Of a stretch of DNA of 64,000 nt, positions 7,846-64,000 are shown one piece after another. The notes below the pieces were generated by a model that was given only the letters and a program-made list of their open reading frames with translations, was not told where the DNA came from and did no database searches. The position numbers and the translations under genes are program-made. Location: contig MU058065.1 in NCBI GenBank assembly GCA_013265495.1, positions 8,473,819-8,537,818 on the forward strand, written 5' to 3'. Each line of letters starts with the position of its first letter. Positions within the stretch are counted from its first letter, which is position 1. Source of the stretch: Vicugna vicugna. Taxonomy: Eukaryota.

Positions 7846-8013
7846 TTTTTTTTTTTTCATCCAATTAAAAAATTTTATTTTTTCATTTCTAGGGGTTTGG
7901 GGGGTGGTAATTAGGTTTGTTTGTTTGTTTATTTATTTAATGGAGGTAGTGGGGGTTGAACCCTGGACTTCGTGCTAAGTATACACTCTACCACTGAACT
8001 ATATACCCTCCTC
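7846..8013 (-). mobile_element. Camelid tRNA-derived SINE (Vic-1-like); a duplicate lies at about 8321-8476
   Basis: Reverse complement has a GAGGGTATA..TCAGTGGTAGAG head, a GGGTTCAACCCCC B box and a TAAACCTAATTACC tail. Confidence 0.8.
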
Positions 8014-8784
8014 ACCTTGGATGACATGACAGTCATGTGAATGAGGGGAGTTTTAGGCAGAGGGAACCAAATAAGGACACCTAACCATTAGCTAGCAACT
8101 GCGTATGCAGAAGACTAAGGAAACAGGGCAAATATAAACTAAAATATGGATACATGTCAAGTTCTGTACTTGGAATTCAAAATTTAACTGAATATGGGCT
8201 AGAGGAGACCTGAATAAATAGCGACTCACAATTTCAGGGTGGATTATAAACTGACATTTTAAAATGTCACCACTATGACATGGCTACAGTACTACACTCC
8301 CCACACCTACCTTATTGCATCATCCAATTAAAAAATTTTATTTTTTCATTTCTAGGGGTTTGGGGGGTGGTAATTAGGTTTGTTTGTTTGTTTATTTATT
8401 TAATGGAGGTAGTGGGGGTTGAACCCTGGACTTCGTGCTAAGTATACACTCTACCACTGAACTATATACCCTCCTCACCTTGGATGACATGACAGTCATG
8501 TGAATGAGGGGAGTTTTAGGCAGAGGGAACCAAATAAGGACACCTAACCATTAGCTAGCAACTGCGTATGCAGAAGACTAAGGAAACAGGGCAAATATAA
8601 ACTAAAATATGGATACATGTCAAGTTCTGTACTTGGAATTCAAAATTTAACTGAATATGGGCTAGAGGAGACCTGAATAAATAGCGACTCACAATTTCAG
8701 GGTGGATTATAAACTGACATTTTAAAATGTCACCACTATGACATGGCTACAGTACTACACTCCCCACACCTACCTTATTGCATC
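7857..8784. repeat. Perfect head-to-tail tandem duplication, 463-bp unit
   Basis: 7857-8321 matches 8320-8784 with no mismatch seen by eye. Confidence 0.95.
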
Positions 8785-17892: not shown

Positions 17893-18515
17893 TTAGACAG
17901 TGGACGTTTCTACCTCCTGGGTGGCATCCTTGTTGGACAGATTGCCTGAGATGTTATCAGATTCAAGCAACTCCACAATGGTGTAGGGAGAACAGTCCTC
18001 CAGACCCAGCTTGCTGCACAGCCAGCCACAGAAGCCTTTCTCCATGTCCCGGGCAGCTTGCCACCACGCTCCCCAGGACCACGAGAGCTGGACCACAGCA
18101 GCATAGAGGCCCAGGGAAGAGGCCATGGCCATGATGAGCACTGGATAGAAGAGAATGAGGCAGGGGCAACATGAGATCTTGTGCCAGAAGGTCCTCTCCT
18201 CATTGTACACAAGGAAGATGTTGTACCAGGTGATGGTGCCGTAGTAGAAAGAGACCACAAAGGAGAGGATGAAGACCACAGGCAGGCAGACCAGCGTCCA
18301 GAGGACCACGTGGGGCCCACGGTCTGCTCCCAACTGGCAGGCCTTTCTGCCTCCAGGTATCGTCTCCCTTGACGACACTTTAGGCTTGGTCAGTTCCTGC
18401 AGCTCCTTCTCTGTCAACGTGACATGGATGTCCACCAGCTGCCCCTTTTTCTTCCCTCGTGTGATGGTCCCAGTTAACGTGACATAGCGGCTGTCCGAAG
18501 GCATGTTCCACATAT
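17893..18515 (-). CDS. TMEM169: TMEM169 last coding exon (DMWNMPSDSRYVTLTG...QEVETSTV*), two hydrophobic TM segments
   Basis: 623 nt after TGCAG; 271+623=894 nt = 297 aa plus stop, matching TMEM169 length as recalled. Confidence 0.95.
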
Positions 18516-19399
18516 CTGCAGGGCACAAAGAGGTGAAAGTCAAGATCAGAAGAGTGGACATCTCATCACAACGTCACCCCCTGAGACTGAAGCTGAGTAT
18601 GAGAGGGTCTTTTCAGAGCCTCTGACACGGCGCTGGAGTCAGTGATTCGATGAGGGACTGAACGGGTCTCCCTCAGGTGGGGGACCACTGGGATTGTTGC
18701 CCCCACGACCAACTCTCCTGTCAGGGCCCTGGCAAAAGGGGGAGGCAGGTTCTTCTTGTGTCTCATGTTCTCTCTCCGCTTCTCTGGTCTCGATCTTGTC
18801 ATGTCTGTGATGTGGACGGGAATGAGGAACTCTACCACAGACACCACTTCACAGCGATCGTATTTCTAGTTTACTAGAAGCACTGTGGAAATGCTGTTCG
18901 TGAGTATCAACTACTGTGTGTGCAGGTGGGGCCGTGTGTGTATTACACTGGTGGGCAGCCCACCTCTCTTCTCTTTTCACCCCTGCCTCTGTGCTTCTCC
19001 AAGAGGGGCCTCCTCACATGCCGTGGACATCCTGGCCTTCACATCTAAGTTCTATATGCACAACACACACACCGTCCACACATATACACACACTCACACC
19101 ACACACATTCCCTACACAGACACATCACCGCCACCAAACAGCCCTCTTTGGCCATCCCGGTGGTGAGGTTGCAGGTGTTGAAATAGCAAAGTCCACAGTT
19201 CTTAATCTGTGGGATGTAGTCTGGAAGTGGAGGACGGCGGGTATGCGGGGAGGCCCAAGCTTCCGGGTAGCATGATCCGTAGGCCCTGCGGACTCCTTGC
19301 CCCACGGCTGGAGCCACCTCAAGGCAGGGCCCAGGACCCTGGCAAGGGACTCTGACTGCCCCCATAAAAAGGTTGTACTGTTGCCCCCAGACCAAATGG

Positions 19400-23086: not shown

Positions 23087-23545
23087 TGTGGGGAGGAGGG
23101 ATAAATTAGAAGTTTGGGATTACAAGTACATACTACTATATATAAAATAGATAAACAATAAGGTCCTACTGTATAGCACAGGGAACTATATTCAGTATCC
23201 TATAATGAACTATAATGGAAAAGAATCTGAAAAAGAATATATACGTATAACTGAATCTCTTTGCTATACACCAGAAACTAATATCACTTTGTAAATCAAC
23301 TATAATTCAATCAATTAAGAGATTGGGATTAACATATACAAACTAGTATAAATAAAATAAACAAAAAGGACCTACTGTATAGCATAGGGAACTATATTCA
23401 ATATCTTGTAATAATAACCTATGATGGAAAAGAATATGAAAAATATATATGTATATGTATAACTAAATCACTTTGCTGTACACCTGAAACTAATACAACG
23501 TTGTAAATCAACTATACTTCAATAAAAATAAATTTTAAAAAATAC
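23087..23545 (+). mobile_element. Two diverged head-to-tail L1 3'-end fragments
   Basis: CCTACTGTATAGCA(C/T)AGGGAACTATATTCA...GTAAATCAACTATA occurs twice, with substitutions. Confidence 0.8.
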
Positions 23546-23950
23546 AAAACAAGATGCTAGTCTCTTTGTTTTGTTTCTTTTCATTTACTAGCCAGAATAC
23601 TCTCAGGCAGTTTTAACCAATCTGGTTTTAAACTCAGTGGAGGAGCCAAGTGGCCCCATTATTATATATTATTGGCAATTGTACTGTGAAAATACTTGTC
23701 TTAATGACCATGGTGGCAGCTTCTATTGATATGAAAGGTTTCTAAATTATTTACCAAATTTCCTAATTTCCAAATAACTGTACTTAGAGTTGAGAATTGC
23801 AGTGGACTGTGAATAGATTCTAATCACAGTTCTGCCGCCCCAAGGCTCCGGGAGATTGTACACTCTGCAGTTAACTCCAGGGTACCAGCTTTCTGTTACT
23901 TTTGTTGATAATTCTCAAATCCTCATTTTCTTTCAGTGCTCTCTGAGCAC

Positions 23951-24125
23951 TTCTTTTCTTTTCTTTTTAAATTTTTATTTATTTATTTATTCATTCATTT
24001 TTTGGTGGGGGGAGGTAATTAGGTTTCCTTATTTATTTACTATTAGAGGAGGTACTGGGGATTGAACCCAGGACCTCATGCATGCTAAGCATGTGCTCTA
24101 CCACTTGAGCTACACCCTCACCCCC
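23951..24125 (-). mobile_element. Vic-1-like SINE
   Basis: tRNA-like head GGGTGTAGCTCAAGTGGTAGAGCACATGCTTAGCATGCATGAGGTCCTGGGTTCAATCCCC; degenerate TSD ACTTCTTT. Confidence 0.85.
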
Positions 24126-32399: not shown

Positions 32400-33000
<601 letters not shown>

Positions 33001-35359
33001 CCCAGAGCAAGGGATGTGTAGGTGTAGGTAAAATTAACCGAAAGGGAGAGAGGAGAGAGTTCTTCCTAAGAGGTGGTGGAGAAGCTTTGCCGAATGAAAT
33101 ACTGTATACTAAAGGGAACCTTTTAAGCCAAAGGTTCTGTACCCGAGGTAGGGATTAAGGAGACCTATGGAAAACATGCTGTGGAATTTATTATGGATGT
33201 GGATTTATATTGCCTATAGAGTGATTAAGAAACATGGGAAGACTCCACTTAACTGGAAAAGGTTCTAACATGTATTTCGTATCTCGTAAAAGTTGTTGGA
33301 CGAAGGGAGAACTTTGTAAGTATGTATACAAGGAAAGAAAACACAAAGGGGAAAATAAATAAATTGACCTATATGAAGATGTAAATCCTCACTGAATTAA
33401 AAAAAGCAATATATAGTTTAAAGGCACATGAAAAACACTTACACATACAACAAATGTAGTATATAAAGCACTTTCACAAATAAATAAGGAAAAAAAATTA
33501 ACACACTGATAGAAAAATAGGCTTATGAAGTGGACCAAGTGTTTCAAATAAAGAATCAAAAATAGGCAGTGAATATGTGAGAAAATAGTCAACTTTTTTG
33601 GCAATGAAATGCAAAATATAACAATAAAAAGATGCCATTATTTTTCTAACAAAATTTTAAAACATTGGGGAAAATGAAAGTGTTGATGAGGGGATGAAAA
33701 ATCAGGGAACAATGTAAATTATTACAAGCTTTCTAGAGATAAGTTTGGAAAAAAATGTGTTAACAGATTCATGCTCTATGACCTTGTAATTCCTCTCTCA
33801 GGAATTTACTCTGAGGAAATAATCAGAGACAAGTATAGATTTGTAGTATAAGAATATAGTATTGAGTAGTGAAACATTGTAAAGGAAATAATTAAATCAG
33901 TAACAATGAACTATTATGCTGCTGTTTAAACATCTTGCTGTTGAAGACTTTATGTGGACAAATGCATAGTACGTAATTGAAAAAAGCAGGATTCCAAACA
34001 AAATATAGCATTCCAATTTAATTGTTAATGAAAAAAATATATATGTAGAAAAAGACTGGAAAGAAGTTTATAATATTGTTAACAGCAGCTACTTTTTCTG
34101 GAAATGACTTGAGTTTGGGTAGTTAGAGTGTCCTCATTTTTCAGGTATTTTTAATGAACGTGTAAATTGTCTCTGCTTACCATTATGTTTCTAATGCCTG
34201 GCACATAGTATGGACTTAAAAACATATGTTAAAAAAATGGAACAATATTTTAGAGAGAAAAAAGATGGGAAAGTAACATTTCTGAATCTGGCCCTGGTGT
34301 AGCCTCATCACCATTACTGCCCACTTCACTCCCAACACCATGCTCTATCCCTTTTCAGGAAAATTCATAAGAAAAGTGGACTTGGTTATCATTTTACGTG
34401 AAAGTCAGATACTAGTCTTCATGGCAGATTTGTCAGATCCAGGTTCAATCTTTCAGGACTCTTTATAGGTTTTCATATATTTGAACTTCATTTCTGTTTG
34501 GTAAGTTTGCACTGACCAAATACTGCATGTCAGCTGTGGGGCACAGTGGCAAGCCTTATTTTTATTAGAACACAAGGAAATATTAAGGTGATGATCTTAT
34601 AATTTTTTGGAAACCAGGGATCCTTTTGAGATTCCAATGATTGGGATGGAGCATCTCCCCAGAAAAAAATATTTCATATACTTAAAAAATACATGTAATA
34701 TTATATTATAAGTGGATTTCCTTCAGGAGAGAATATGCCAATAATTTTTACTCTTTCTCAGCTTTCTTTTTTAATGCCAGAATTAATGGCTACTTTCTGA
34801 AAATTGTTATAGAAACCCAAATTGGGCCAATAAAATAAAATGTTAGCCAATTCTATTTCTAGTAAGAAGGCATGGATTACAAGTTGAATTTTCAGGCGTG
34901 TTTTTAAAAATGGTTGTTATCATGTTGTCTTTCACATCCAAATGATTTTGACTGTTCCTTTCCTGAGAGGATGCTGAAAACCCTAGCTCACAAGAGTGAG
35001 ATGTAGTGAACAGAATTGGAACCCTCTTCGTCTGTTTGACAGTTAGACAACGGGAGTCCTGATTCCATCAAGGAACACTGTACCTAAGACCATTCACATT
35101 GAATTCAAGCCAGATCCTCGTCTCTGTCTTCAAGGTTGTCATTGTGACAGTGGTTGCAATGAAAGTAGACATGGGAAGTGGAACTTTTTCTTGGCTCTGG
35201 GACTAGGCTCTTAACACCAGGGGTTAGAAGTCGCTTAATCAATGCAGCACTCCGAGTTAAAGACTGAAAGAAATCAGTATCAACCCAGGCAGGAAAGCAA
35301 TGTACTTTGCTACAAATGCCTCTGATGTGAGAAATAACTCGTTATTTGCAAGTTACTTC

Positions 35360-35630
35360 CTCTTCTTTTTTTTTTTTCCATTGGATTTTGGAGGAGGATA
35401 ATTAGGTTTGTTTATTTATTTATTTATTTATTTAGACAGAAGTACTAGGACTTGAACTTAGGACCTCGTGCATGCTAAGCATGCACTCTACCACTGAGCT
35501 ATACCACCCTTCTTTTTTTTTATTAATTGAAGTATAGATGATTTACAATATTTTGTTAGTTTCAGGTGTACAGCAAAGTGATTTAAATATATACATACTT
35601 TTAATGATTCTTTTCCATTATAGGTTATTA
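35360..35630 (-). mobile_element. Composite: Vic-1-like SINE (about 35365-35510) inserted in the A tail of a short L1 3' fragment (about 35511-35630)
   Basis: Shared flanking TSD GCAAGTTACTTC at 35348-35359 and 35631-35642. Confidence 0.78.
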
Positions 35631-36280
35631 GCAAGTTACTTCTGTACCTGTTTTAACTAAATTTATCAAGCTTTCTGAATTTCTGTAGCAACTCATATAA
35701 AAAACAGAAAATGTCCATCCAAATCATTTAGCATAAGGGTTAGAAGAAGGATGTTATCTAATTATTTTCTAGTTTGTTGTAAGGTAATATAAGAGCACTG
35801 CAGTAAATTCAGGTAGTATAGAAGTATATGAAAGAAAAAAATGAGCTTTCCCTTTCTGCCCTTCTGAATCCCCTTCCTGGCAATTTTCTGTGGGTCATTC
35901 ACATGCATACAAATACACATGTGTGTATTTTGTTATTTACAAAACTGGGATCGGAGGATTCTTACTGCTCGGTAATTTTTCCTTTCCATGCTAATGCATA
36001 TAGTAATATCTCATTCTTCTCAAAGTTATATGATATTCCATTGTATGGATGTGTAATAATTTATTTGGCCATTCCTTTCATGGAAATTTAGGTTTATAGT
36101 TTTACCCAGGATTGCAGTGTTCTTCCTTGTAACACCTTTGCCCTTTAGTTCAAGTTTATATAGCAGTTAAAATAAATAGCCTTTTAAAGTTGTGTTCCAG
36201 TACAACTCTGCTAATATTAGATAACTTTCCTCAAGTCCTCAGGGTTTAGGTAGTAATCAGTGATAATTCAATAAACTTCT

Positions 36281-36624
36281 TTTTTATATTTTTATTGAAG
36301 TATGGTTAGTTTACAATGTTGTGTCATTTCTGGTGTACAGCATAATGCTTCAGTCATACATGAACATGCATATATTCGTTTTCATATTCTTTTTCACCAT
36401 AAGTTACTACAAGATATTGAATATAGTTCCCTGTGCTATACAGTATGAACTTGTTGTTCATTGGATTTTGTGAGAATCCTCCTGTATTTTGAAGCGAGAG
36501 ACACTCTGCCAGAGTTCAGTAGGTGTTCTGTGTGATTCATTGGGTTTGTAGATCTAATTCTTGGTGTTTTTGTGGGAGAGGGCGAGCTGTGAGTCTCTCT
36601 ACTCCACCGTCTTGGCACCTTCCC
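36281..36624 (-). mobile_element. Bipartite mini-L1: 163-nt L1 5' end fused to a 181-nt L1 3' end, with TSD
   Basis: 12-bp TSD CAATAAACTTCT at 36269-36280 and 36625-36636. The 5' part resembles 56563-56723 and the 3' part resembles 63589-63770. Confidence 0.85.
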
Positions 36625-38349
36625 CAATAAACTTCTAGCTAGATAATTCGTATGAATAATCCTATTTATATTTTCACCATATTTCTTATTTGAAGCCTTA
36701 GACAAAGTCAGCATTAATCACCTTAGTATTCCTGAGGATATATATTTATATATATTTTTAATGACGCTTAACTTCTTAATGTAGATTTAGAAAGAGTTTA
36801 AGGTGTCAGATTTCCCTGCCCCATTCAATCTGTGCCCTACTCTGGAAGCTAGAGCAAATTATGCAATAATCTTGCAGGCAAAAAGATTAATGAGGGAAGT
36901 GGGGCAGAGGCAGTGGCTGATCCAGGGGAACGTGTTTCTTCTTTCCATTTTACTGATCAGATTAGTTTTTCCTCCTAACTCAGGGAAGCCTGGCAGAGGG
37001 TTGGACCTGAGCTAGAAGCATATATTTCAGTTCTTTTCCCTCCTGGGAGTAGAAGGCCCCTCCTGGAAACAGGTGAAAGAAATAAGGATTCTCCCTAATA
37101 GTATAAATTATGCTTTGTTGAAAATTATGCATGTATTTTGATAAATTAAATTCTCTTTTAAAGTTAGTCATGTCTTAGAAGGAACTCATAGCAAATCTTT
37201 TTAATATTTGCTTTATAATAAAAGCTCTCAAGTTGCCTGTCAGAATTTCAAAAAGTTGTTTGCATTTGGAGCTCACTAAATTATAACCGAAACTCAAAAA
37301 AATAGTTTTTTAAAGTGCCTTATTTTAATGTGAAGCAGCCATCTCATCATACGCAACTAGAATAGCCCTGGTCAAATGCAGAGTCATTTTACACCTTACC
37401 TTCCCAAGCCTCATTTATCCCATACGTGAATATTGAGTGTGGACTGTATGTGAGTGTAACAGTTACAGTAACGACAGGGTCTCCCTGTCTTCCAGGGGAT
37501 GACAGTGATTGAGGGGAGACAGTTAATTATCATACAACAGAGGCAGGTATGTGAGAGCACGTAGAAGGAGCTGCCAGCCTGCTCTTGGTAAGGGAGAGGA
37601 AGGAGGGTTTTAATATAGTTGTGATTATCAGTATGGTTCGTTTGAAATCTGCCATCCACATCTGGGCTTCCCAGAGCAGGGGCGAGGCTCCTCCCTCTCT
37701 TTGAGGCTGCCTTGGCAAGTATTTCTGCTTTTTATATTTGTGCATGAAAAGAAGGAAGTATTCTCTTCAGGATGAACCAAAACATAAGGCAACAATGAGC
37801 AGTAACATTCAGGATTACTTTGTAAGGTAGATGAATATTCCAGCATCTCAGAGCTTATTATTTTTACTCAAGGAAAACACTGGTAGCAGTGTCCACAACC
37901 CCATGGGTAGCTCTTCCTTTTACAACTCCATTTACATTCAATTCTAATTTCCCTTCCAGTGTTACAATTTTTATTTCTTTGTTGTGTTTCCATCTTTATT
38001 GGCCAGTCACTCTTTCAGTCATCCTTTTTTTTGGTTAAGTGTCATATGTGTTTATCATTGGAAGACAAAGAGGCAACACAGCTGCCTTCTTTGCTGTCTG
38101 TGCGTAGATTGAAGAACAAAAGCACAGTGACCGGTCATTTACAGACATTGAAAGAAGTGACACGATTAGTCACTGATTGTGATGTGCACCTTTATTTGCA
38201 TGATGACTTATGGATTTGTGCTAGCAATGAAGTTTGTGTTTTATGCAGTTGCTCGCAGTTAATATGGCATAGTAACTGAAATCTGAACCATGTTGTTGGG
38301 AGACTGGGGTTATTTAAGCTAATGTAACAGAAATTAGGGTGTATTAGAG

Positions 38350-39720
38350 TTGAGCAAAACAAGAACTGATAGTACTTCTAGTTCACTATTCCTGACCATT
38401 GTATAGCAATTAAATTCTGTTCCCATACATTTTATGTCTACATATGTTATAAATCCTACAATACATTGCTATCATTTTTACTTTAAAGAAGCACAACCTT
38501 TTACAGAGATTTGAAGGAAATACAAGAAGTCTTTATGTTTACTTTATTTACTCACAAAATTACCATTTCTGGTAGATTCAGATTTTCATCTGTATCATAG
38601 CCCTGCTTGAAGGCCTTCCTTTAATCTTACTTGCAGTGCAGGTCTGCTTTAATGAATTCTTCTGGGTATTATGTGTGTGAACAAGTCTTTACTTTGCCAT
38701 CATTTTGAAAGCTGTTTCCACTGGATAGGATTTCTAGATTTCAAAACTCTCCACTGTCTCCTGGCTTTTATTGTTTCTGAAAAGAAGTCTTCTGTCTTCC
38801 TTGTCTTGTTTTGTTCTGTACTTAATGTGTTCTTTCTCTGGCTGCTTTTAATATTTTTCTCCTTATCCCTGGTATATTTAATTGTGTCACCAACACCATT
38901 TCTGGGTCTGTTTTTATTAATTGACTTTTCCCTCATCCTGGCTTCTATTTTCCTTCTCCTTTGTGTGTCTGGTGGTTTTTGTTGGATGCCAGACATCTGA
39001 ATTTTGCCTTGTTGGATGCTGATTATTTTTATATTCTTAAAAATATTATTGAGCTTTGTTCTGTGATACAGTTAAGTTAAGTTGGAAACAGTTTGATATT
39101 TTAAAGAGACTTTCTTTCTGTTACCCGTTGATCTGAACAGCTTTTGGCTTAGGGTTAATTTTGCTTCACTACTGAGGCCATACTCTTCTGAGTACTTTAC
39201 CCAGTGCCCCATAAGAGTTTTTCCTGGTGGGGACACTGACTGTTCCCAGATCTGTGTCAATGTCTGGGTTTGTTTCCTCTGCTTATTTTGGGTGGTTCTT
39301 TCCCGAGCCTCAGATAGTTCCCTTACGTGTACTGATCGGTGCTCAGGTGAAAACTGGAAGGAACTCGACAGATCTCTGGAGCTTTCTCTTGGGGTCCCTC
39401 TTTGCTTCCTGTGCCTTGTGTAATCCAGCCATCTCGGCCTCCCTGGACTCCCACTCCCATCTCCTCTGTCCAGGAGACTGCTGCGCTGTGAATGGTTTCC
39501 TCCCCCCTGTGCTGAAGGCTAGAGACTCTCTCTGAGCAGCAGCCTGGAATAATAATAGGGCTCACGTTGTCTCTTCCCATTCTCTGGGATCACTGTTCTG
39601 TGCTGCCTGATGTCCAATGCCTGAAAATCATTGTTGCACATGTTTTGTTCAGTTTTTAGTTGTCTTGTGCTGGAGGGCAAACTCAGGGTCTATTACTCCA
39701 CCTTGACCATAAGCAGAACT
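38350..39720 (-). mobile_element. Old L1M remnant (ORF1/5' region)
   Basis: Minus-strand peptide TEDFFSETIKARRQWRVLK resembles L1 ORF1; approximate. Confidence 0.55.
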
Positions 39721-39770
39721 TCTAGTTTATCTTTTTTTTTTCTAACAGGATCACACAAAATATTTTCTAA

Positions 39771-40028
<258 letters not shown>

Positions 40029-40508
40029 TAAACCTGACTGTGCTTTGGGTTTTCCTATGGTAGCTGTCTTAGATGAGGTTTACTGAAAGCAGAGCCTGTG
40101 ATGGGGATTCTTGTGTTAATGAGCTATGAGTGAGTGACCTCAGGAGAAGAAGAGGAAGGGAAGCAACATAGAGAAGCTAAGCAAGCACAGTTTCAGCTAG
40201 AGACTACCTTTTGTCCTTGAAGTCATTTCTTAATGTCTATTTCATCACTATCCATCATTCAGGGTTGGTAGCTTACAAATTAAAACAATGGAGGAGTGAT
40301 CCAGGCCCTTGGATAAATCTTGTCATCAAAATTCCAGATTTAGCTTTATGATCCTAAATTTTTCAGGTTTATTCATTGTGACTACATCTCCGTTTATTGT
40401 GGTACTCAAGAGTTACCGTTCACTGGGAGAGACTGTGAGCTCTGTTACTCACCTAGAGCAAGGGATAAAATCCAAGTGGCAAGTTAGATTATTAACCAAT
40501 TCACTTTT

Positions 40509-40832
40509 AAAATTTTATTTATTTATTGAAATATAGTTGATGTACAGTATAGTGATACACAATTTTTGAAGGTTATACTCCATTATAGTTATTATGAGAT
40601 ATTTACTATATTCCCCCATGTTGTACAATACATCCTTGTAGTTTATTTTATACCTAATAGTTTGTACCTCTTAATCCCCTACCCTTATATTGCCCCTCCC
40701 CTCTCCCTACTAATAACCACTAGTTTGTTCTCGATATCTGTGAGTCTGCTTCTTTTCTGTTATATTCACTAGTTTGCTGTATTTTTTGGATTCCACATAA
40801 AAGTGGTATCATATGGTATTTGTCTTTGTCTG
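40509..40832 (-). mobile_element. L1 3'-end fragment (older artiodactyl-type)
   Basis: L1 3'UTR-like text; flanked by TAACC(A/G)ATTCACTTTT repeats. Confidence 0.78.
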
Positions 40833-40848
40833 TAACCGATTCACTTTT

Positions 40849-40939
40849 TTTTTTTTTAAATGGAGGTCCTGAGAGTTGAACCCAGGACCTCGTGCATATT
40901 AGGCATGCGCTCTACCCCTGAGCTATACCCTCCTGCACG
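40849..40939 (-). mobile_element. Short Vic-1-like SINE immediately upstream of PECR exon 3
   Basis: Reverse complement reads GGAGGGTATAGCTCAGGGGTAGAG...GGGTTCAACTC, followed by an A tail. Confidence 0.82.
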
Positions 40940-40970
40940 TAATGGATTCACTTTTAATGTTTTTATTTAG

Positions 40971-41150
<180 letters not shown>

Positions 41151-46710: not shown

Positions 46711-46885
46711 TAGAGTTACCAGATTCACCAGAAAAATAAAAACAAACAGTGCACCCAGTTAAATAATTTTTTATTATAAGTATGTCCCAAATATCGCATG
46801 GGACATAGTTACGCTAAAAATTATTTGTTGTCTGTCTAGAAATTCAAATTTAACTCTATGTCCTGTATTCTGTCTGGCAACCCTA
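46711..46885. mobile_element. MER53-like palindromic hAT MITE
   Basis: TIRs TAGAGTTACCAGA / TCTGGCAACCCTA; central AGTATGTCCCA...TGGGACATA inverted repeat. Confidence 0.75.
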
Positions 46886-55740: not shown

Positions 55741-55871
55741 GGAGGGGAGGGTATAGCTCAGTAGTAGAGCATGTGCTTAGTATGCACAAAGGTTCAATTC
55801 CCAGTACCTCCATTAAATAATAAACAAACAAACCAAATTACCTGACCCCCACCCCAAAAGAAGACCTGATG
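55741..55871 (+). mobile_element. Vic-1-like SINE
   Basis: GGGGAGGGTATAGCTCAGTAGTAGAG head; TSD AAAAAGT(T/G)TGCTTGT at 55726-55740 and 55872-55886. Confidence 0.85.
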
Positions 55872-58221
55872 AAAAAGTGTGCTTGTAAAGGGAAGGAGGG
55901 ATGATGATAGCCATGGTGAGTTGCAAAATAAGGAGAGAGTTTCAGCCTCTGCCTGATAGCTCGTAGCATCCCTAGGCCATGGTTTCCAAGATATTCCGAT
56001 TGCTCCAGCTAATCACCAGTATCCCTTTGGGGACAGAACTTTCACACTAGGCCACTGGTGAACTGCCTAGAGCTGCTTATTGGTGAGTTGCCTTCTTGTA
56101 AGTGAAAGTTCCTGGGATAGAGTCAGGAGGGTCAGAATGTAGCTGTACTTTTAAAAGGAACCACCCAGAGCTCCCACAGTGTCCCTCAACATCTCTGGTG
56201 AAGAGAATGCAGCACTTGGCAGACCCTTCAAAGGCCTTGTGATATACTGTACACTCATTTTACAAATTAAACCAAGAGCCAAAGAGGTTCAGTAATTTGC
56301 CTGAGGCCATGCATAGGTCGTGATACTGGGATACAAACCCAAGTCTACTGATTTAAAATCTCTGTGATCTTTAATAAGCAGAGCTGAAAGTAAACAGATA
56401 ACTGAGCTAAAAGTGGTTGTAACCCACATAGATAAAGCAGATACAAGTTGCTAGTTTCCAATAGTGTTTATTGATTGCTAGAACACCTGTTAATGACTTA
56501 GTACTTCAAGTTCATTCATCAAATGGATTCCGTTAAAATGAAAATTAAGAAGAATCTAAAGAGACTTCCGGGCAAGATGGCGGAGTAGAAGGACTCTTGT
56601 AAGTTACCCTCTCCCACAAATACACCAAGACCCACATCTACAGACCCACTCAGCCAACCAGAGCACCTGCGGAACTCCAACAGATCATCGCCCTCTTCAA
56701 AAGATAAAGACGCCAAAAATCTGGTAGGAGAAAAGGAAAAAAGAAAGAACAAAAGGCAAAGCAGCGCGGGACGGGTCCCGCGGGGAGGGAGCGGCAAAGG
56801 AGGACTGGCGCTTGCTCGCTGGGTCTCCCCTCTCCAACTGAGAGGCCAGCGGGACGGAGGGGGAGCCTCCGAGGCTCGGATCTGTACAGAGCAGCCCTTG
56901 TCTGACAGAACTAAGTTAAACGGGCACAGAGCGTCCCCCCGACACCCAGCCTGAGACGCGGGCCGGCAGCGGCGGGCAGGGCCAGGCTGCACAAGCCGGG
57001 CGGAGGACGGGGGCGGCTGCACGGAGGCAGCTCCGGGGGACTGCAAGGGGCTGGGCGCCGGGGCTGTGGGTGTACAGGACAGAACAACCTGGGCCCTCCA
57101 TAAAACAGCAAGGTTGATGTGCTCTCGGGGGAAGGGTGCATACCCCCATCTCTGAAAACCCGCGGAAACTTTTCAGGGGAAGAGGGGCGGGGCCCAGGCA
57201 GAGCCGCCATATTCTCCGGCGCTTAGCACCCAGGCGGGGGCAGAGGCGAAACCTGCGTCCGCACCGAAGGGCTTAGCAGCCTCAAGGGCCAGACTGAGAC
57301 GGGCCTACAGCCCTGGGCAGATAGGATCCTTCCATTCTGGTCCCCCAGAGAACTTGCTCCACAAAGACAAACAAGCAGCTGGGTCTTGGCTCGGAGCAGG
57401 GACGAGGCTGCCCCTCGGTCTTCCCCGAGCCCACCCGCGGAGCGCGACCAGGGCGGAGCGCCGACCGGGGCGGAGCGCGACCAGGGCGGAGCGCCGGCGC
57501 AGAGCGCGCAGCCGCACAGAGCAGCGGAGCTACCGGCGGCGCAGGCAGGGGGAGAGCGGCCCCCCGCCTGTCGGGCAGGAACACAACCCCTGACCGAGGT
57601 GCTGGGAGGGGGCACGACCCGCCCTCCTGCCTGGCCAGTCTGCAACATCTGACTGCGGCATCCGGAGGGGCAGTGACCCGCCCGCCCGCAGCAGAGGAGA
57701 GCTGCATCTGACCCCGTGTTAGGAGGAGGCGCGATCTGCTTGCCGACAGGTGCTGGGAGCAGCACAGAAGAGGGCGCCAACGGAGGGCCTATGAAAACAA
57801 GCTGAGCTTCCAAAACAGGATGAAGACAGAAGGACATCACATTAAAAGCACACACACTCCAGGAGAACACCGACAACCCCCCCTTTATTTTTTTGCTTGT
57901 TTGTTTTTTTGTTTTTGTTTTTGTTTTTGTTTTGTTTTTTTTTTAATCTGTTTTTACCTGTTCTATTTTCAATTACTCTCTTAATTTTTACTTCTTAATT
58001 CATTTCTATTTCTCTTGGGTTTTGATGTCCTGTTATTGATTAGACACAGGCTTCAAACACATATATTCATCTCCCCCCCCCCCTTTTTTTTTTTAAGGTT
58101 TTAAAAGGACTTCTCCACCCGATTAATACTCTGCTTCAACCCGCTCTTCTATTATTCATTATACATTGTTTTCAAACCCTCTTTCTCCCTTCTTTTAAAA
58201 ATCTTTCTCTCTCTCTTATTC

Positions 58222-58253
<32 letters not shown>

Positions 58254-58348
58254 CCTAAGTTCTATTCCTAAATAGGCATTAGATAGATAAAATCCTTAAG
58301 ATCCAAAATAGACAACTGATACTCCATAAACCACAGTGCCAGAGAGGT

Positions 58349-59251
58349 ATGAGCAAGATGAAGAAGCAGAGAAACCTTTCCCAATTAAAAGAACAAGAGG
58401 AATCCCCTGAAAGAAAGCTCAATGAAATAGACATCGATAGCCTACTAGATCAAGATTTCAAAAAAGGAGTGATCAAATTGCTGAAGGAATTAAAAGAGAT
58501 AATGCTTAGAGAAATAAAATATGTCAAAAATGAAATTGAAGCTATAAAGAAGAGCCAAGCAAAATGGGAAAACTCATTGACAGAGATGAGGAATGATCTA
58601 ACAGCTGTGCAAAGCCGACTAGTTAATGCAGAGGAACGAATTAGTGATCTAGAAGACAGGGCAACAGAAAGCACCCATTCAGAAGAACTACAAGATAAGC
58701 AAATAAAAAATAATGATAATAGCATAAGGGACCTATGGGATAATATAAAGCGTCCCAATCTTCGCATAATAGGGGTCCCAGAAGGGGAAGAAGGATCAAA
58801 GGGGATTGAAAAGGTTTTTGAAGAAATCATGACTGAAAACTTCCCAAACTTAAAGAAGGAATCAGATATCCAAGTACAGGAAGCTCAGAGGGTCCCAAAC
58901 AGGAAGAACCCAAATAGACCCACACCAAGACATATCATAATCAAGATGGCCAGAGTCAAGGATAAAGAAATGATTCTAAAGGCAGCAAGAGAAAAGCAAA
59001 GAGTGAACTACAAGGGAACCCCCATAAGGCTCTCAGCTGATTTCTCTACACAAACACTACAGGCCAGAAGGGAGTGGCAAGATATATTCAAAGCCCTGAA
59101 TGAAAAAAAGATGCAGCCTAGGATACTTTATCCAGCAAGGCTATCCTTTAGGATAGAAGGAGAAATAAAGAGTTTCACAGACAAAAAAAAGCTGCAGGAG
59201 TTTAGCAACACTAAACCCATGCTAAAAGAAATATTGAAAGGGCTATTCTAA
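58349..59251 (+). CDS. L1 ORF1p (300 aa; coiled coil, RRM, CTD)
   Basis: Conserved motifs WDNIKRPNLRIIGVPE, ARREW and YPARLSF. Confidence 0.95.
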   Translation: MSKMKKQRNLSQLKEQEESPERKLNEIDIDSLLDQDFKKGVIKLLKELKEIMLREIKYVKNEIEAIKKSQAKWENSLTEMRNDLTAVQSRLVNAEERISDLEDRATESTHSEELQDKQIKNNDNSIRDLWDNIKRPNLRIIGVPEGEEGSKGIEKVFEEIMTENFPNLKKESDIQVQEAQRVPNRKNPNRPTPRHIIIKMARVKDKEMILKAAREKQRVNYKGTPIRLSADFSTQTLQARREWQDIFKALNEKKMQPRILYPARLSFRIEGEIKSFTDKKKLQEFSNTKPMLKEILKGLF

Positions 59252-59648
59252 ATAGAAAAGCAGCAGGATGCTACAGAAATGAGAAACGTACAACTGGAAA
59301 GGTGATAACTCATGAATTACAAATAAAGAAAACACGAAATTATAAAAGAAGACATACAAATCACTGAGAGTGGGAGAGGGAGGCAGGGAAATATAGAATT
59401 TTTTTTCTTTCTTTTTTAAATTTTTTTAACAGTAGGATGGGTTTGAGATCATGTTATTATCAGTTTATTAAAAACGGGTATAGGTTAATAGATTTACAAA
59501 AAAGGGTAACCACAAGTCAAAAATTTACAAGGGAGTCACAAAAATTAAATAAAATCCATGATAATACAAAGGAAAATTACCAAACCACAAAAGGAAGAAG
59601 AAAGGAACAAAGAGGATATACCAATTCAACTGCAAAGATAAGTTCAAA

Positions 59649-62600
59649 ATGGCAATAAACACACATCTATCATTAATTACTGTAAATGTTAATGGACTAA
59701 ATGCTCCAGTCAAAAGACATAGAGTGGCAGACTGGATAATAAAGCAAGAACCTTCAATATGCTGCATACAAGAGACCCACTTTAGGGAGAAGGACACATA
59801 TAGATTGAGAGTGAAAGGATGGAAAAGGATATTCCATGCAAATGGAAAAGCCAAAAAAGCAGGTGTTGCAGTACTGATTTCAGACAAAATAGACTTTAAA
59901 ACAAAGGCCATAAAGAAAGATAAAGAAGGACATTTTATAATGATTAAAGGAGTGATACAAGATGAAGATATTACACTCGTTAATATATATGCACCCAATA
60001 TAGGAGCACCTAAGTACATACAAGAATTACTAACAGAGATAAAGGGGGATATTGATGGGAATACAATCATAGTTGGAGATTTTAACACTGCATTAACATC
60101 ACTAGACAGATCTTCCAGACAGAAAATAAACAAGGCAACAGAGAAATTAAATACTACAATAGAAAAACTAGATTTGGTGGATATTTTCAGAGCATTACAC
60201 CCCCAAAAAATAGAATATACATTCTTTTCAAGTGCACATGGAACATTTTCCAGGATCGATCATGTACTTGGACACAAAAGAAACCTCAACAAATTTAAGA
60301 AGATAGAAATTATCTCAAGCATCTTTACTGACCACAATGCCATGAAACTGGAAATCAACAACAGAGAAACAAAGGAGAAAAAAAGAAAAGCATGGAGATT
60401 AAACAATATGTTATTGAAAAAACAATGGATCAATGAGGAAATCAAAGCTGAAATTAAAAAATACCTTGAGACAAATGATAATGAAAGCACAACCACTCAA
60501 AACCTATGGGACACAGCAAAGGCAGTGCTAAGAGGGAAGTTTATAGCGATACAGGCCTTCCTCAAAAAAGAAGAACAATCTCAAATAAACAAGTTAACCC
60601 ACCACCTGAATCAATTAGAAAAAGAAGAACAAAAAGCCCCAAAAAGCAGCAGAAGGAAGGAAATAATAAAGATCAGAGAGGAATTAAATACAATAGAGAT
60701 TAACAAGACCATAGAAAAAATCAACCAAACCAAAAGCTGGTTTTTTGAAAAAGTAAATAAAATCGACAAACCTCTGGCCAAACTCACAAAGAAGAAAAAA
60801 GAGAGAGCACAAATTAGCAAAATAAGAAAGGAAAATGGAGAAATTACAACAAACAAAATAGAAATACAGAATATCATACGAGAATATTATGAAAAACTAT
60901 ATGGAACCAAACTGGATAACCTAGAGGAGATGGACAAGTTTCTGGAAACATACTGTCCACCAAAACTGAATCAAGAAGAAACTGAACACTTGAACAATCC
61001 GATCACTAGAAAGGAAATAGAAATAGCAATTAAAAACCTCCCTACAAATAAAAGTCCAGGACCGGACGGCTTCACCGGGGAATTCTACCAAACATACAAA
61101 GAAGAACTCATACCAGTCCTTCTCAAACTCTTCCAGACGATTGAAAAGGAGGGAATACTCCCAAACTCATTCTATGAAGCCACCATCACCCTGATACCAA
61201 AACCAGGCAAAGACACTACAAAAAAAGAGAATTATAGGCCAATATCACTGATGAACATAGACGCCAAAATCCTCACCAAAATTTTAGCAAATAGAATCCA
61301 ACAACACATAAAAAAGATTATACATCATGACCAAGTGGGGTTCATCCCAGGGACACAAGGCTGGTTCAACATACGCAAATCAATCAATGTAATACATCAC
61401 ATCAACAAGAGAAAGGACAAAAACCACATGATCATCTCAATCGATGCAGAAAAAGCATTTGATAAAATTCAACACCCATTTATGATAAAAACTCTCGCCA
61501 AAGTGGGTATAGAGGGAACATATCTCAACATAATAAAAGCTATATATGACAAACCTATAGCCAGCATAGTTCTCAACGGTGAAAAACTCAAAAGCTTCCC
61601 ACTAAAATCTGGGACAAGACAAGGATGCCCACTATCACCACTCCTATTCAATATAGTCCTGGAAGTCCTAGCCACAGCAATCAGGCAAGAGAAAGAAATA
61701 AAAGGGATCCAAATTGGAAAAGAAGAGGTAAAAGTGTCATTATATGCTGACGACATGTTACTATATATAGAAAACCCTAAAAGGTCCACAAAAAAGCTAC
61801 TAGAGCTGATCGAAGAATTCAGCAAGGTAGCAGGTTACAAAATTAATGTTCAAAAATCAGTTGCCTTTCTTTACACTAACGATAAATCAACAGAAAAAGA
61901 AAGTAAAGAAACAATCCCCTTTAAAATAGCACCCAAAGTAATAAAATATCTGGGAATAAATCTAACCAAGGAGGTGAAAGAATTATACACAGAAAACTAT
62001 AAACCATTGATGAAGGAAATTAAAGAAGACTTTAAAAAATGGAAAGATATTCCATGCTCTTGGATTGGAAGAATCAATATTGTTAAAATGGTCACACTGC
62101 CCAAGGCAATCTACAGATTTAATGCAATCCCTATCCAATTACCCAGGACATATTTCACAGAACTAGAACAAATCATAATAAAATTTATATGGAACCATCA
62201 AAGACCTAGAATTGCTAAAGCATTACTGAAGAGAAAGAAAGAGGCTGGAGGAATAACTCTCCCAGACTTCAGACAATACTATAGAGCTACAGTCATCAAG
62301 ACAGCATGGTATTGGTACCAAAACAGACATATAGACCAATGGAACAGAATAGAGAGCCCAGAAATGAACCCACAAACTTTTGGTCAACTCATCTTCGACA
62401 AAGGAGGCAAGAATATACAATGGAATAAAGACAGTCTCTTCAGCAAATGGTGTTGGGAAAACTGGACAGCAGCATGTAAAACAATGAAGCTAGAACACAC
62501 CCTTACACCATATACAAAAATCAACTCAAAATGGATTAAAGACTTAAACATAAGACAAGATACAATAAACCTCCTAGAGGAAAACATAGGCAAAACATTA

Positions 62601-63446
62601 TCTGACATACATTTCAAAAATTTTCTCCTAGAAGAAATAAAAGCAAGAATAAACAAATGGGACCTAATGAAACTTACAAGCTTCTGCAGAGCAAAGGAAA
62701 CCAGAAATAAAACAAGAAGAAAACCTACGGAATGGGAGAAAATTTTTGCAAGTGAAACCGACAAAGGCTTGATCTCCAAAATATATAAGCAGCTCATACG
62801 ACTCAATAAGAAAAAAATAAACAACCCAATCCAAAAATGGGCAGAAGACCTAAACAAGCAATTCTCCAAGGAAGACATACAAATGATCAAAAAGCACATG
62901 AAAAAATGTTCAATATCACTAATTATCAGAGAAATGCAAATCAAAACTACAATGAGGTATCACCTCACACCAGTCAGAATGGCCGTCATTCAAAAATCCA
63001 AAAATGACAAATGCTGGAGAGGCTGTGGAGAAAGGGGAACCCTCCTACACTGCTGGTGGGAATGCAGTTTGGTGCAGCCACTATGGAAAACAGTGTGGAG
63101 ATTCCTCAAAAGACTAGGAATAGACTTACCATATGACCCAGGAATCCCACTCCTGGGCTTGTACCCAGAAGGAAATCTACTTCAGGATGACACCTGCACC
63201 CCAATGTTCATAGCAGCACTATTTACAATAGCCAAAACATGGAAACAACCTAAATGTCCATCAACAGGTGACTGGATAAAGAAGAAGTGGTATATTTATA
63301 CAATGGAATACTACTCAGCCATAAAAACCGACAACATAATGCCATTTGCAGCAACATGGATGCTCCTAGAGAATGTCATTCTAAGTGAAGTAAGCCAGAA
63401 AGAGAAAAAAAAATACCATATGAGATCGCTCATATGTGGAATCTAA
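59649..63446 (+). CDS. L1 ORF2p (1265 aa; APE endonuclease, reverse transcriptase, C-terminal CCHC)
   Basis: EN motifs NVNGLN, QETH, GDFN, TDH; RT motifs QGCPLSP and YADD; C-terminal [18 protein letters not shown]. Confidence 0.97.
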
Positions 63447-64000
63447 AAAACAAAAACAAACAAACAAACAAAAACAAAGCATAAATACAGGACAGAAATA
63501 GACTCATGGACAGAGAATACAGACTTGTGGTTACCGGGGGGATAGAGGGTGGGAAGGGATAGACTGGGATTTCAAAATTGTAGAATAGATAAACAAGATT
63601 ACACTGTATAGCACAGGGAAATATACACAAAATGTTATGATAAATCACAGAGAAAAAAATGTGACAATGAGTGTGTATATGTCCATGAATGACTGAGAAA
63701 TTGTGCTGAACACTGGAATTTGACACAACACTGTAAAAGGATTATGAATCAATAAAAAATGTTAAAAAAAAAGAAGAATCTAAAGAAGTTATAATAGTGT
63801 CTAGTTAATTTGGTAATTATAAAAATTTTAGTAGTTCATTTTACCTCCATGTTGAGCTCCAAAATTAACTCAGGCATCTTGAAGATTTGTGTCTTTTACC
63901 TAGCAGATAGTTTCAGTTCAATTTAGTATTTTTCACGGTGCCTAGTCTGTTGTCAAAAACGCTGTTACTAGGAGCTGGGCAATGCAAAATTCCTTTTTTG

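Follow-up and report, generated by a model that had tools for sequence, protein, structure and literature searches.

A multi-copy 344-nt L1 derivative that lacks both open reading frames and probably arose by splicing between the two untranslated regions

A 344-nt insert in the 64,000-nucleotide stretch of DNA analysed here (the window) consists of the two ends of an L1 element joined directly to each other. This mini-L1 is a real and multi-copy element, and probably splice-born. We consider it likely (probability about 0.7) that an L1 RNA was spliced from its 5′UTR to its 3′UTR, lost both ORFs and was retrotransposed in trans, similar to the spliced integrated retrotransposed elements (SpIREs) of human L1. 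The features discussed are collected in Table 1.

Table 1. Positions of the mini-L1, of the L1 sequences compared with it and of the neighbouring host exons in the window.
Feature	Position	Strand	Remarks
Target-site duplication, tail (3′) side of element	36269..36280		exact 12-mer CAATAAACTTCT
Target-site duplication, 5′ side of element	36625..36636		exact 12-mer CAATAAACTTCT; cut site CT/AGAA on element strand
Start of L1 5′UTR, 163 nt	36462..36624	-	72% to 56573-56702
End of L1 3′UTR, 181 nt, with AATAAA and short degenerate A-tail	36281..36461	-	81% to old tails 23350 and 3111; 73% to young tail
Joint of L1 5′ and 3′ ends	36461..36462	-	1-nt overlap between the two sides; contig alignment
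Younger full-length L1 (reference, not direct parent)	56563..63770	+	16-bp target-site duplication 56547-56562/63771-63786
GT matching 5′ breakpoint of mini-L1	56724..56725	+	6/9 matches to donor consensus
AG matching 3′ breakpoint of mini-L1	63587..63588	+	no pyrimidine tract
Same AG in older L1 tail	23149..23150	+	neighbouring tail copy 23312-23548 without AG
Host exons, peroxisomal trans-2-enoyl-CoA reductase gene	32849..41130	+	about 32.85-32.97 kb and 41.0-41.1 kb; PDB 1yxm, E 2e-13

As a preceding sequence-only reading had noted, the minus-strand insert at 36281-36624 is enclosed by a perfect 12-bp target-site duplication (TSD) with the same 12-mer on both sides; of 20,000 random 344-nt spans of the window, 5 had a repeated 12-mer no more than 5 nt from each end. 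The empty site on the element strand, CT/AGAA, is a variant of the L1 endonuclease site. The proposed composition, 163 nt from the L1 5′ end joined at 36462/36461 to 181 nt of 3′UTR and tail, was also recovered. Nucleotides 11-138 of the insert align with the start of the full-length L1 (56573-56702; 72% over 130 nt, E 9e-15), and the 3′ part matches the tail of the same element (63592-63758) at 73%. Two older L1 tails, at 23350 and 3111, are closer to the 3′ part (81% each), in agreement with the earlier caveat that the insert originated in an older L1 subfamily. AATAAA is present at 36296-36291 and is followed by a short degenerate A-rich tail. Both L1 ORFs are absent, as had been claimed, and the longest stop-free sense stretch covers about 62 codons and comes from UTR sequence. 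The 5′ part contains a motif at 36614-36604 that we take to be YY1-like, which in the 344-nt copy differs from the young L1 at two positions. When the element was folded as RNA, no special structure emerged (z = -1.08; 13 of 100 shuffles were equally good). The copy at 36281-36624 is probably old and dead.

The younger full-length L1 encodes ORF1 (58349-59251, 300 aa) and ORF2 (59649-63446, 1265 aa), both of which are open and have Pfam matches, with L1 ORF1 and endonuclease/reverse-transcriptase domains. Its 5′UTR is long and GC-rich and carries a 16-nt tandem repeat at 57437-57494. At the positions corresponding to the breakpoints of the mini-L1, this element has the dinucleotides expected of an intron, as first read from the sequence: GT at 56724-56725, 161 nt from its start, and AG at 63587-63588, 182 nt from its end. 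By dinucleotide frequency, GT and AG would jointly occur at a fixed breakpoint pair with a chance of about 0.002. The donor GT is known only from this young L1, which is just 72% identical and does not belong to the true parent subfamily; it is not the best donor in the first 600 nt, a stronger site by the donor consensus being located at 56599. The acceptor AG recurs in an older tail at 23149-23150 and is absent from one of the two complete older tails in the window. The region 23151-23548 (+) holds two old L1 tails head to tail, with a period of 212 nt and 81% likeness between them. The earlier caveat that the acceptor lacks a pyrimidine tract remains valid, the pyrimidine fractions before the AG being 0.37 (young L1) and 0.47 (tail at 23149). 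Measured on the young L1, the implied intron would be about 6.9 kb long and would skip many other sites, which counts against splicing.

The weak acceptor and a donor known only from a 72%-identical relative would favour another origin, in which a single internal deletion or a template switch by the reverse transcriptase, without splicing, produced a two-ended L1 that was then amplified as a non-autonomous master, driven either by the initial 163 nt of the internal promoter or by a promoter of the host. Internal deletion is the reported route to ORF-less bipartite LINEs in other clades (PMC5786205), and the sequences upstream of the two breakpoints are imperfectly alike, which could guide a template switch. 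However, the breakpoint sits on GT and AG with an overlap of only 1 nt, the product is not joined at the likeness but keeps the 5′-side bases up to G, and a second GT..AG joint (see below) is hinted at. A single deletion or template switch also needs a master, because the junction is common to the copies. We regard this origin as unlikely. Microhomology at the breakpoints had been named beforehand as an argument against splicing. The two sides overlap by just 1 nt at the junction, which agrees with splicing; an imperfect likeness exists near both breakpoints, between the young L1 tail and the bases just 5′ of the junction (GGATT...AAAAT).

To look for the junction elsewhere, contigs of four public runs (X1, X4, X15 and X20) were aligned to 36151-36750 at 80% likeness. 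X1 and X4 are whole-genome runs and X15 is an RNA run. Among the 32 contig pieces listed, a listing that favours long pieces and is accompanied by 108,374 further ones, 36461/36462 is crossed by six of eight in X1, four of eight in X4, three of eight in X15 and none of eight in X20. Nine of these 13 listed bridging pieces extend 31 letters or more to either side of the junction. The listed bridging pieces show 9-16% divergence from the window, whereas an unrelated continuation past the junction would cost 17 mismatches in 27 nt or 29 in 45 nt; a mismatch so far below that level indicates true homology. Three bridging pieces among those listed (X4 records 27 and 28, X15 record 12) are gapless, and the junction is therefore in exact register; most of the others listed have 1-4 gap letters over 170-200 nt.

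Eight of the listed bridging pieces extend 270-2726 letters beyond the 5′ part of the element and are unlike the window flank, whereas a contig of this very locus matches 36585-36750 with 1-2 differences, which places the bridging pieces at other loci. Some records from different runs look like one locus, so the 13 bridging pieces do not represent 13 loci. In run X1 alone there are at least six junction loci besides that of the window, giving a copy number of at least seven. The junction is thus not unique; uniqueness had been named beforehand as evidence against the proposal. With its TSD, its tail, both L1 ends and a junction present at other loci, the element is well described as a retrotransposed two-ended L1 derivative, as first suggested. 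The recurrence at 9-16% divergence with other flanks leaves little room for a unique accident such as chance adjacency of a 5′ end and a tail, a post-insertion deletion, an assembly error or a segmental duplication. A single TSD encloses both parts, and 0.85-0.88 of the words of 36100-36800 are present in 14 runs under six organism labels. An accident of this kind is favoured by nothing but the listed contigs of the window's own locus, which break inside the element, and we consider it extremely improbable. No empty-site joint was found among the 15 joints listed (41 further ones exist).

The edges of homology at the breakpoint are sharp. Six listed pieces that cover only the 5′ part end at 36461-36464, and four of them continue with 16-225 unlike letters, as longer parental 5′UTRs would. 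Position 36462 is A in the window copy and, on the element strand, G in two-thirds of the pooled depth, while one fifth of the pooled depth at 36463 is T on that strand. These frequencies at 36462/36463 are those of a decayed CpG, so G was the last base of the ancestral 5′ side, as it is in the young L1. On the tail side, the loose ends of 942 X1 contigs at 36458 have a consensus with TAG, on the element strand, ahead of where the 3′ part begins. If the shared base is given to the 5′ side, the removed piece starts with GT in the young L1; it ends with AG there, in the pooled loose ends and in the older tail at 23149-23150. The splicing claim of the sequence-only reading is therefore partly supported: AG occurs in all three of these, whereas the GT is found only in the young L1 and the acceptor is weak.

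Two further joints were noted. One, from 36435 to 36505, was found in one contig each of X1 and X15 and is bounded by GT..AG on the element strand; it could be a second spliced isoform. GT..AG occurs in this one of nine listed skips, which is a weak signal (chance about 0.02), and because joints with fewer than 30 letters on one side call for caution, we treat it only as a hint. The other, from 36445 to 36497 (one contig each in X1 and X4), also bridges the 5′ and 3′ parts and is not GT..AG. Its existence, together with the imperfect likeness near both breakpoints, could argue for recurrent independent deletions at a structural or homology hotspot during L1 insertion, with neither splicing nor a master. 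Such deletions are expected to be ragged, but at least three paralogues are gapless relative to the window copy and most others have 1-4 gap letters per 170-200 nt, and this explanation appears very unlikely.

The summed depth at 36462, about 260-290 single-copy equivalents, is a ceiling for the copy number of the family, to which 5′-only and tail-only pieces may contribute, and the depth over the 5′ part as a whole amounts to about 1000-2700 single-copy equivalents. Depth is an unreliable copy count here, as the value at 36462 (3228) lies near that at 36554 (3595), another site of a private change. The bridging pieces have a mean mismatch of 12.4% and are slightly nearer to the window copy than seven listed pieces covering only the 5′ part (14.0%); the two means lie close together and refer to different regions, and as far as it goes the contrast would fit a separate lineage, as under a deletion or template-switch master. 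About 12% between copies would correspond to about 6% from a common source, suggesting that the mini-L1 family is old. In the RNA runs X15-X20, 0.10-0.28 of the words of 36100-36800 are present. We do not count the bridging contigs of X15 as evidence of transcription, as intronic or DNA copies are inseparable from transcripts in contigs.

Under the spliced-RNA origin, which we prefer, splicing in RNA of an older L1 subfamily would join a donor at nt 163 of the 5′UTR to an acceptor that leaves the last 181 nt ahead of the poly(A) site. Both ORFs would thereby be removed, leaving a capped and polyadenylated RNA of about 0.35 kb unable to encode L1 proteins. The ORF2 protein of other L1s would reverse-transcribe this short RNA in trans, and target-primed reverse transcription would insert it at many sites. 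An RNA this short would nearly always be inserted whole and would thus stand out among 5′ ends even with a rare splice; by escaping 5′ truncation, it would be over-represented among intact 5′ ends. The GT is inferred for the true parent, as are splicing itself and mobilisation in trans. How the copies multiplied is less certain. Repeated splicing of full-length parents is plausible at somewhat less than even odds, and a single spliced copy acting as a master is a tentative option that we hold to be rather doubtful. Whether splice- or deletion-born, the ORF-less 344-nt derivative has just under an even chance of having become a non-autonomous family that propagates itself, with a few hundred copies at most, in which case the first 163 nt of the L1 promoter would drive it.

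The suggestion that the element is SINE-like does not hold in the strict sense. The head of the insert is L1 5′UTR and not a tRNA, 7SL or 5S head, and no ARAGORN or Rfam match overlaps 36281-36624. A degenerate junction pattern gave 13 loci in metagenome contigs, all 13 of which were rejected as chance matches without L1 flanks. Neither the junction pattern in bacterial and archaeal genome contigs nor the tail motif in viral contigs gave any match. One search of protein entries with conceptual translations across the junction returned no candidates; another junction-translation bait gave 246 matches, the best 150 of which were all on the tail side only with no 5′-side residues, and a further bait gave two of four candidates, again tail side only. 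These negatives in contig and protein collections reflect only the lack of host DNA there. At least 246 representative protein entries resemble spurious translations of such L1 3′UTR.

The closest precedent is provided by the SpIREs, identified as 131 of 6,609 full-length L1PA1-6 elements in human (Larson et al., 2018, PMC5860796), in line with the premise that spliced L1 RNAs can be retrotransposed. SpIREs have an internal gap bounded by a donor and an acceptor, with the donor near the 5′ end, as the mini-L1 probably does, and resemble it in having a TSD, an A-tail, an endonuclease site and the same junction at many loci (PMC5860796). In the mini-L1, the corresponding features are a TSD within the range of about 6-25 bp with a 3′ A-tract and an L1 endonuclease-type site, 13 bridging pieces in three runs (six of them in one genome run) for the shared junction, and an acceptor AG in unspliced relatives (the young L1, the tail at 23149-23150 and the pooled ends at 36458; absent at 23312). 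The SpIRE classes described in the accessible parts of PMC5860796 (97/622, 97/790 and 97/976) use a primate L1PA donor at 98-99 and an acceptor in the 5′UTR or ORF1 and keep ORF2, whereas the mini-L1 falls outside these classes, with its acceptor in the 3′UTR and both ORFs gone; both proteins must therefore come in trans. It is also non-primate and 0.34 kb long, while SpIREs are primate elements of about 5-5.5 kb (PMC5860796). SpIREs have been judged dead ends (PMC5860796), with one exception driven by a host promoter (PMC13174262). Human L1 RNA is spliced in tissues from a 5′UTR donor to distant acceptors, for example in SpORF2 (Belancio et al., 2010, PMC2896524); SpORF2-type products keep ORF2, and in the sections of that paper at hand no 3′UTR acceptor appears among them, unlike in the mini-L1.

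Other reduced LINEs show a similar architecture. ORF-less bipartite non-autonomous LINEs include Bov-A, RTESINE, RIME, NARTc and Vingi derivatives (Kojima, 2018, PMC5786205), and the available part of that survey reports them only for RTE, Ingi, Vingi and R2, via internal deletion. The mini-L1 resembles them in having only the 5′ and 3′ LINE ends, no ORF and multiple copies, and differs from the clades reported there in that both of its parts match an element with L1 ORF1/ORF2 domains and that it is probably splice-born. A mammalian non-autonomous reduced L1, HAL1 (half-L1), is known (PMC5786205, PMC13756887, PMC4494074) and represents L1 in the same part of PMC5786205; HAL1 keeps ORF1 and is kilobases long, whereas the mini-L1 has 344 nt and no ORF. 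A literature search, with Repbase, Dfam and most subscription papers outside its scope, returned no 5′UTR-to-3′UTR L1 splice product and no ORF-less two-ended L1 family, and the mini-L1 family may already have a Repbase or Dfam entry. In a survey of camelid transposable elements (PMC8605555), the terms "spliced" and "HAL1" had no matches in the accessible text, its supplements and a possible repeat library being outside the scope.

The mini-L1 lies antisense between two exons of the peroxisomal trans-2-enoyl-CoA reductase gene. A TMEM169 exon at 17893-18561 (-) is arranged head to head with the reductase exons (+), and the sequence at 32-33 kb is CpG-rich. Several other features of the window were noted. 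A perfect two-copy tandem duplication of 463 bp at 7857-8784 (100% identical) represents either a very recent duplication or an assembly artefact. Four tRNA-like matches (24046-24119, 35437-35508, 40861-40933 and 55747-55812) are probably heads of tRNA-derived SINEs, and the one at 35437-35508 comes immediately after an old L1 3′ end and its A-tail. A marginal Rfam match to mir-1302 was found at 46769-46820 (-), with 63.1 bits against a cut-off of 62.

The mini-L1 would extend retrotransposed spliced L1s beyond primates, to an extreme form without either ORF. If its copies descend from short masters, L1 would join the few LINE clades that have spawned ORF-less bipartite parasites, splicing would be one route to such parasites, and the element would define a minimal combination of L1 promoter and tail, of natural origin, that is enough for mobilisation in trans. 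A self-propagating family would be a bipartite element of the L1 clade, of a kind unlisted in the accessible part of the 2018 survey (PMC5786205), and a counter-example to the view of SpIREs as dead ends. If the copies are instead repeated dead-end splices, they would clearly document, as fossils, an unusual L1 splice and the efficiency with which ORF-less L1 RNA is mobilised in trans.
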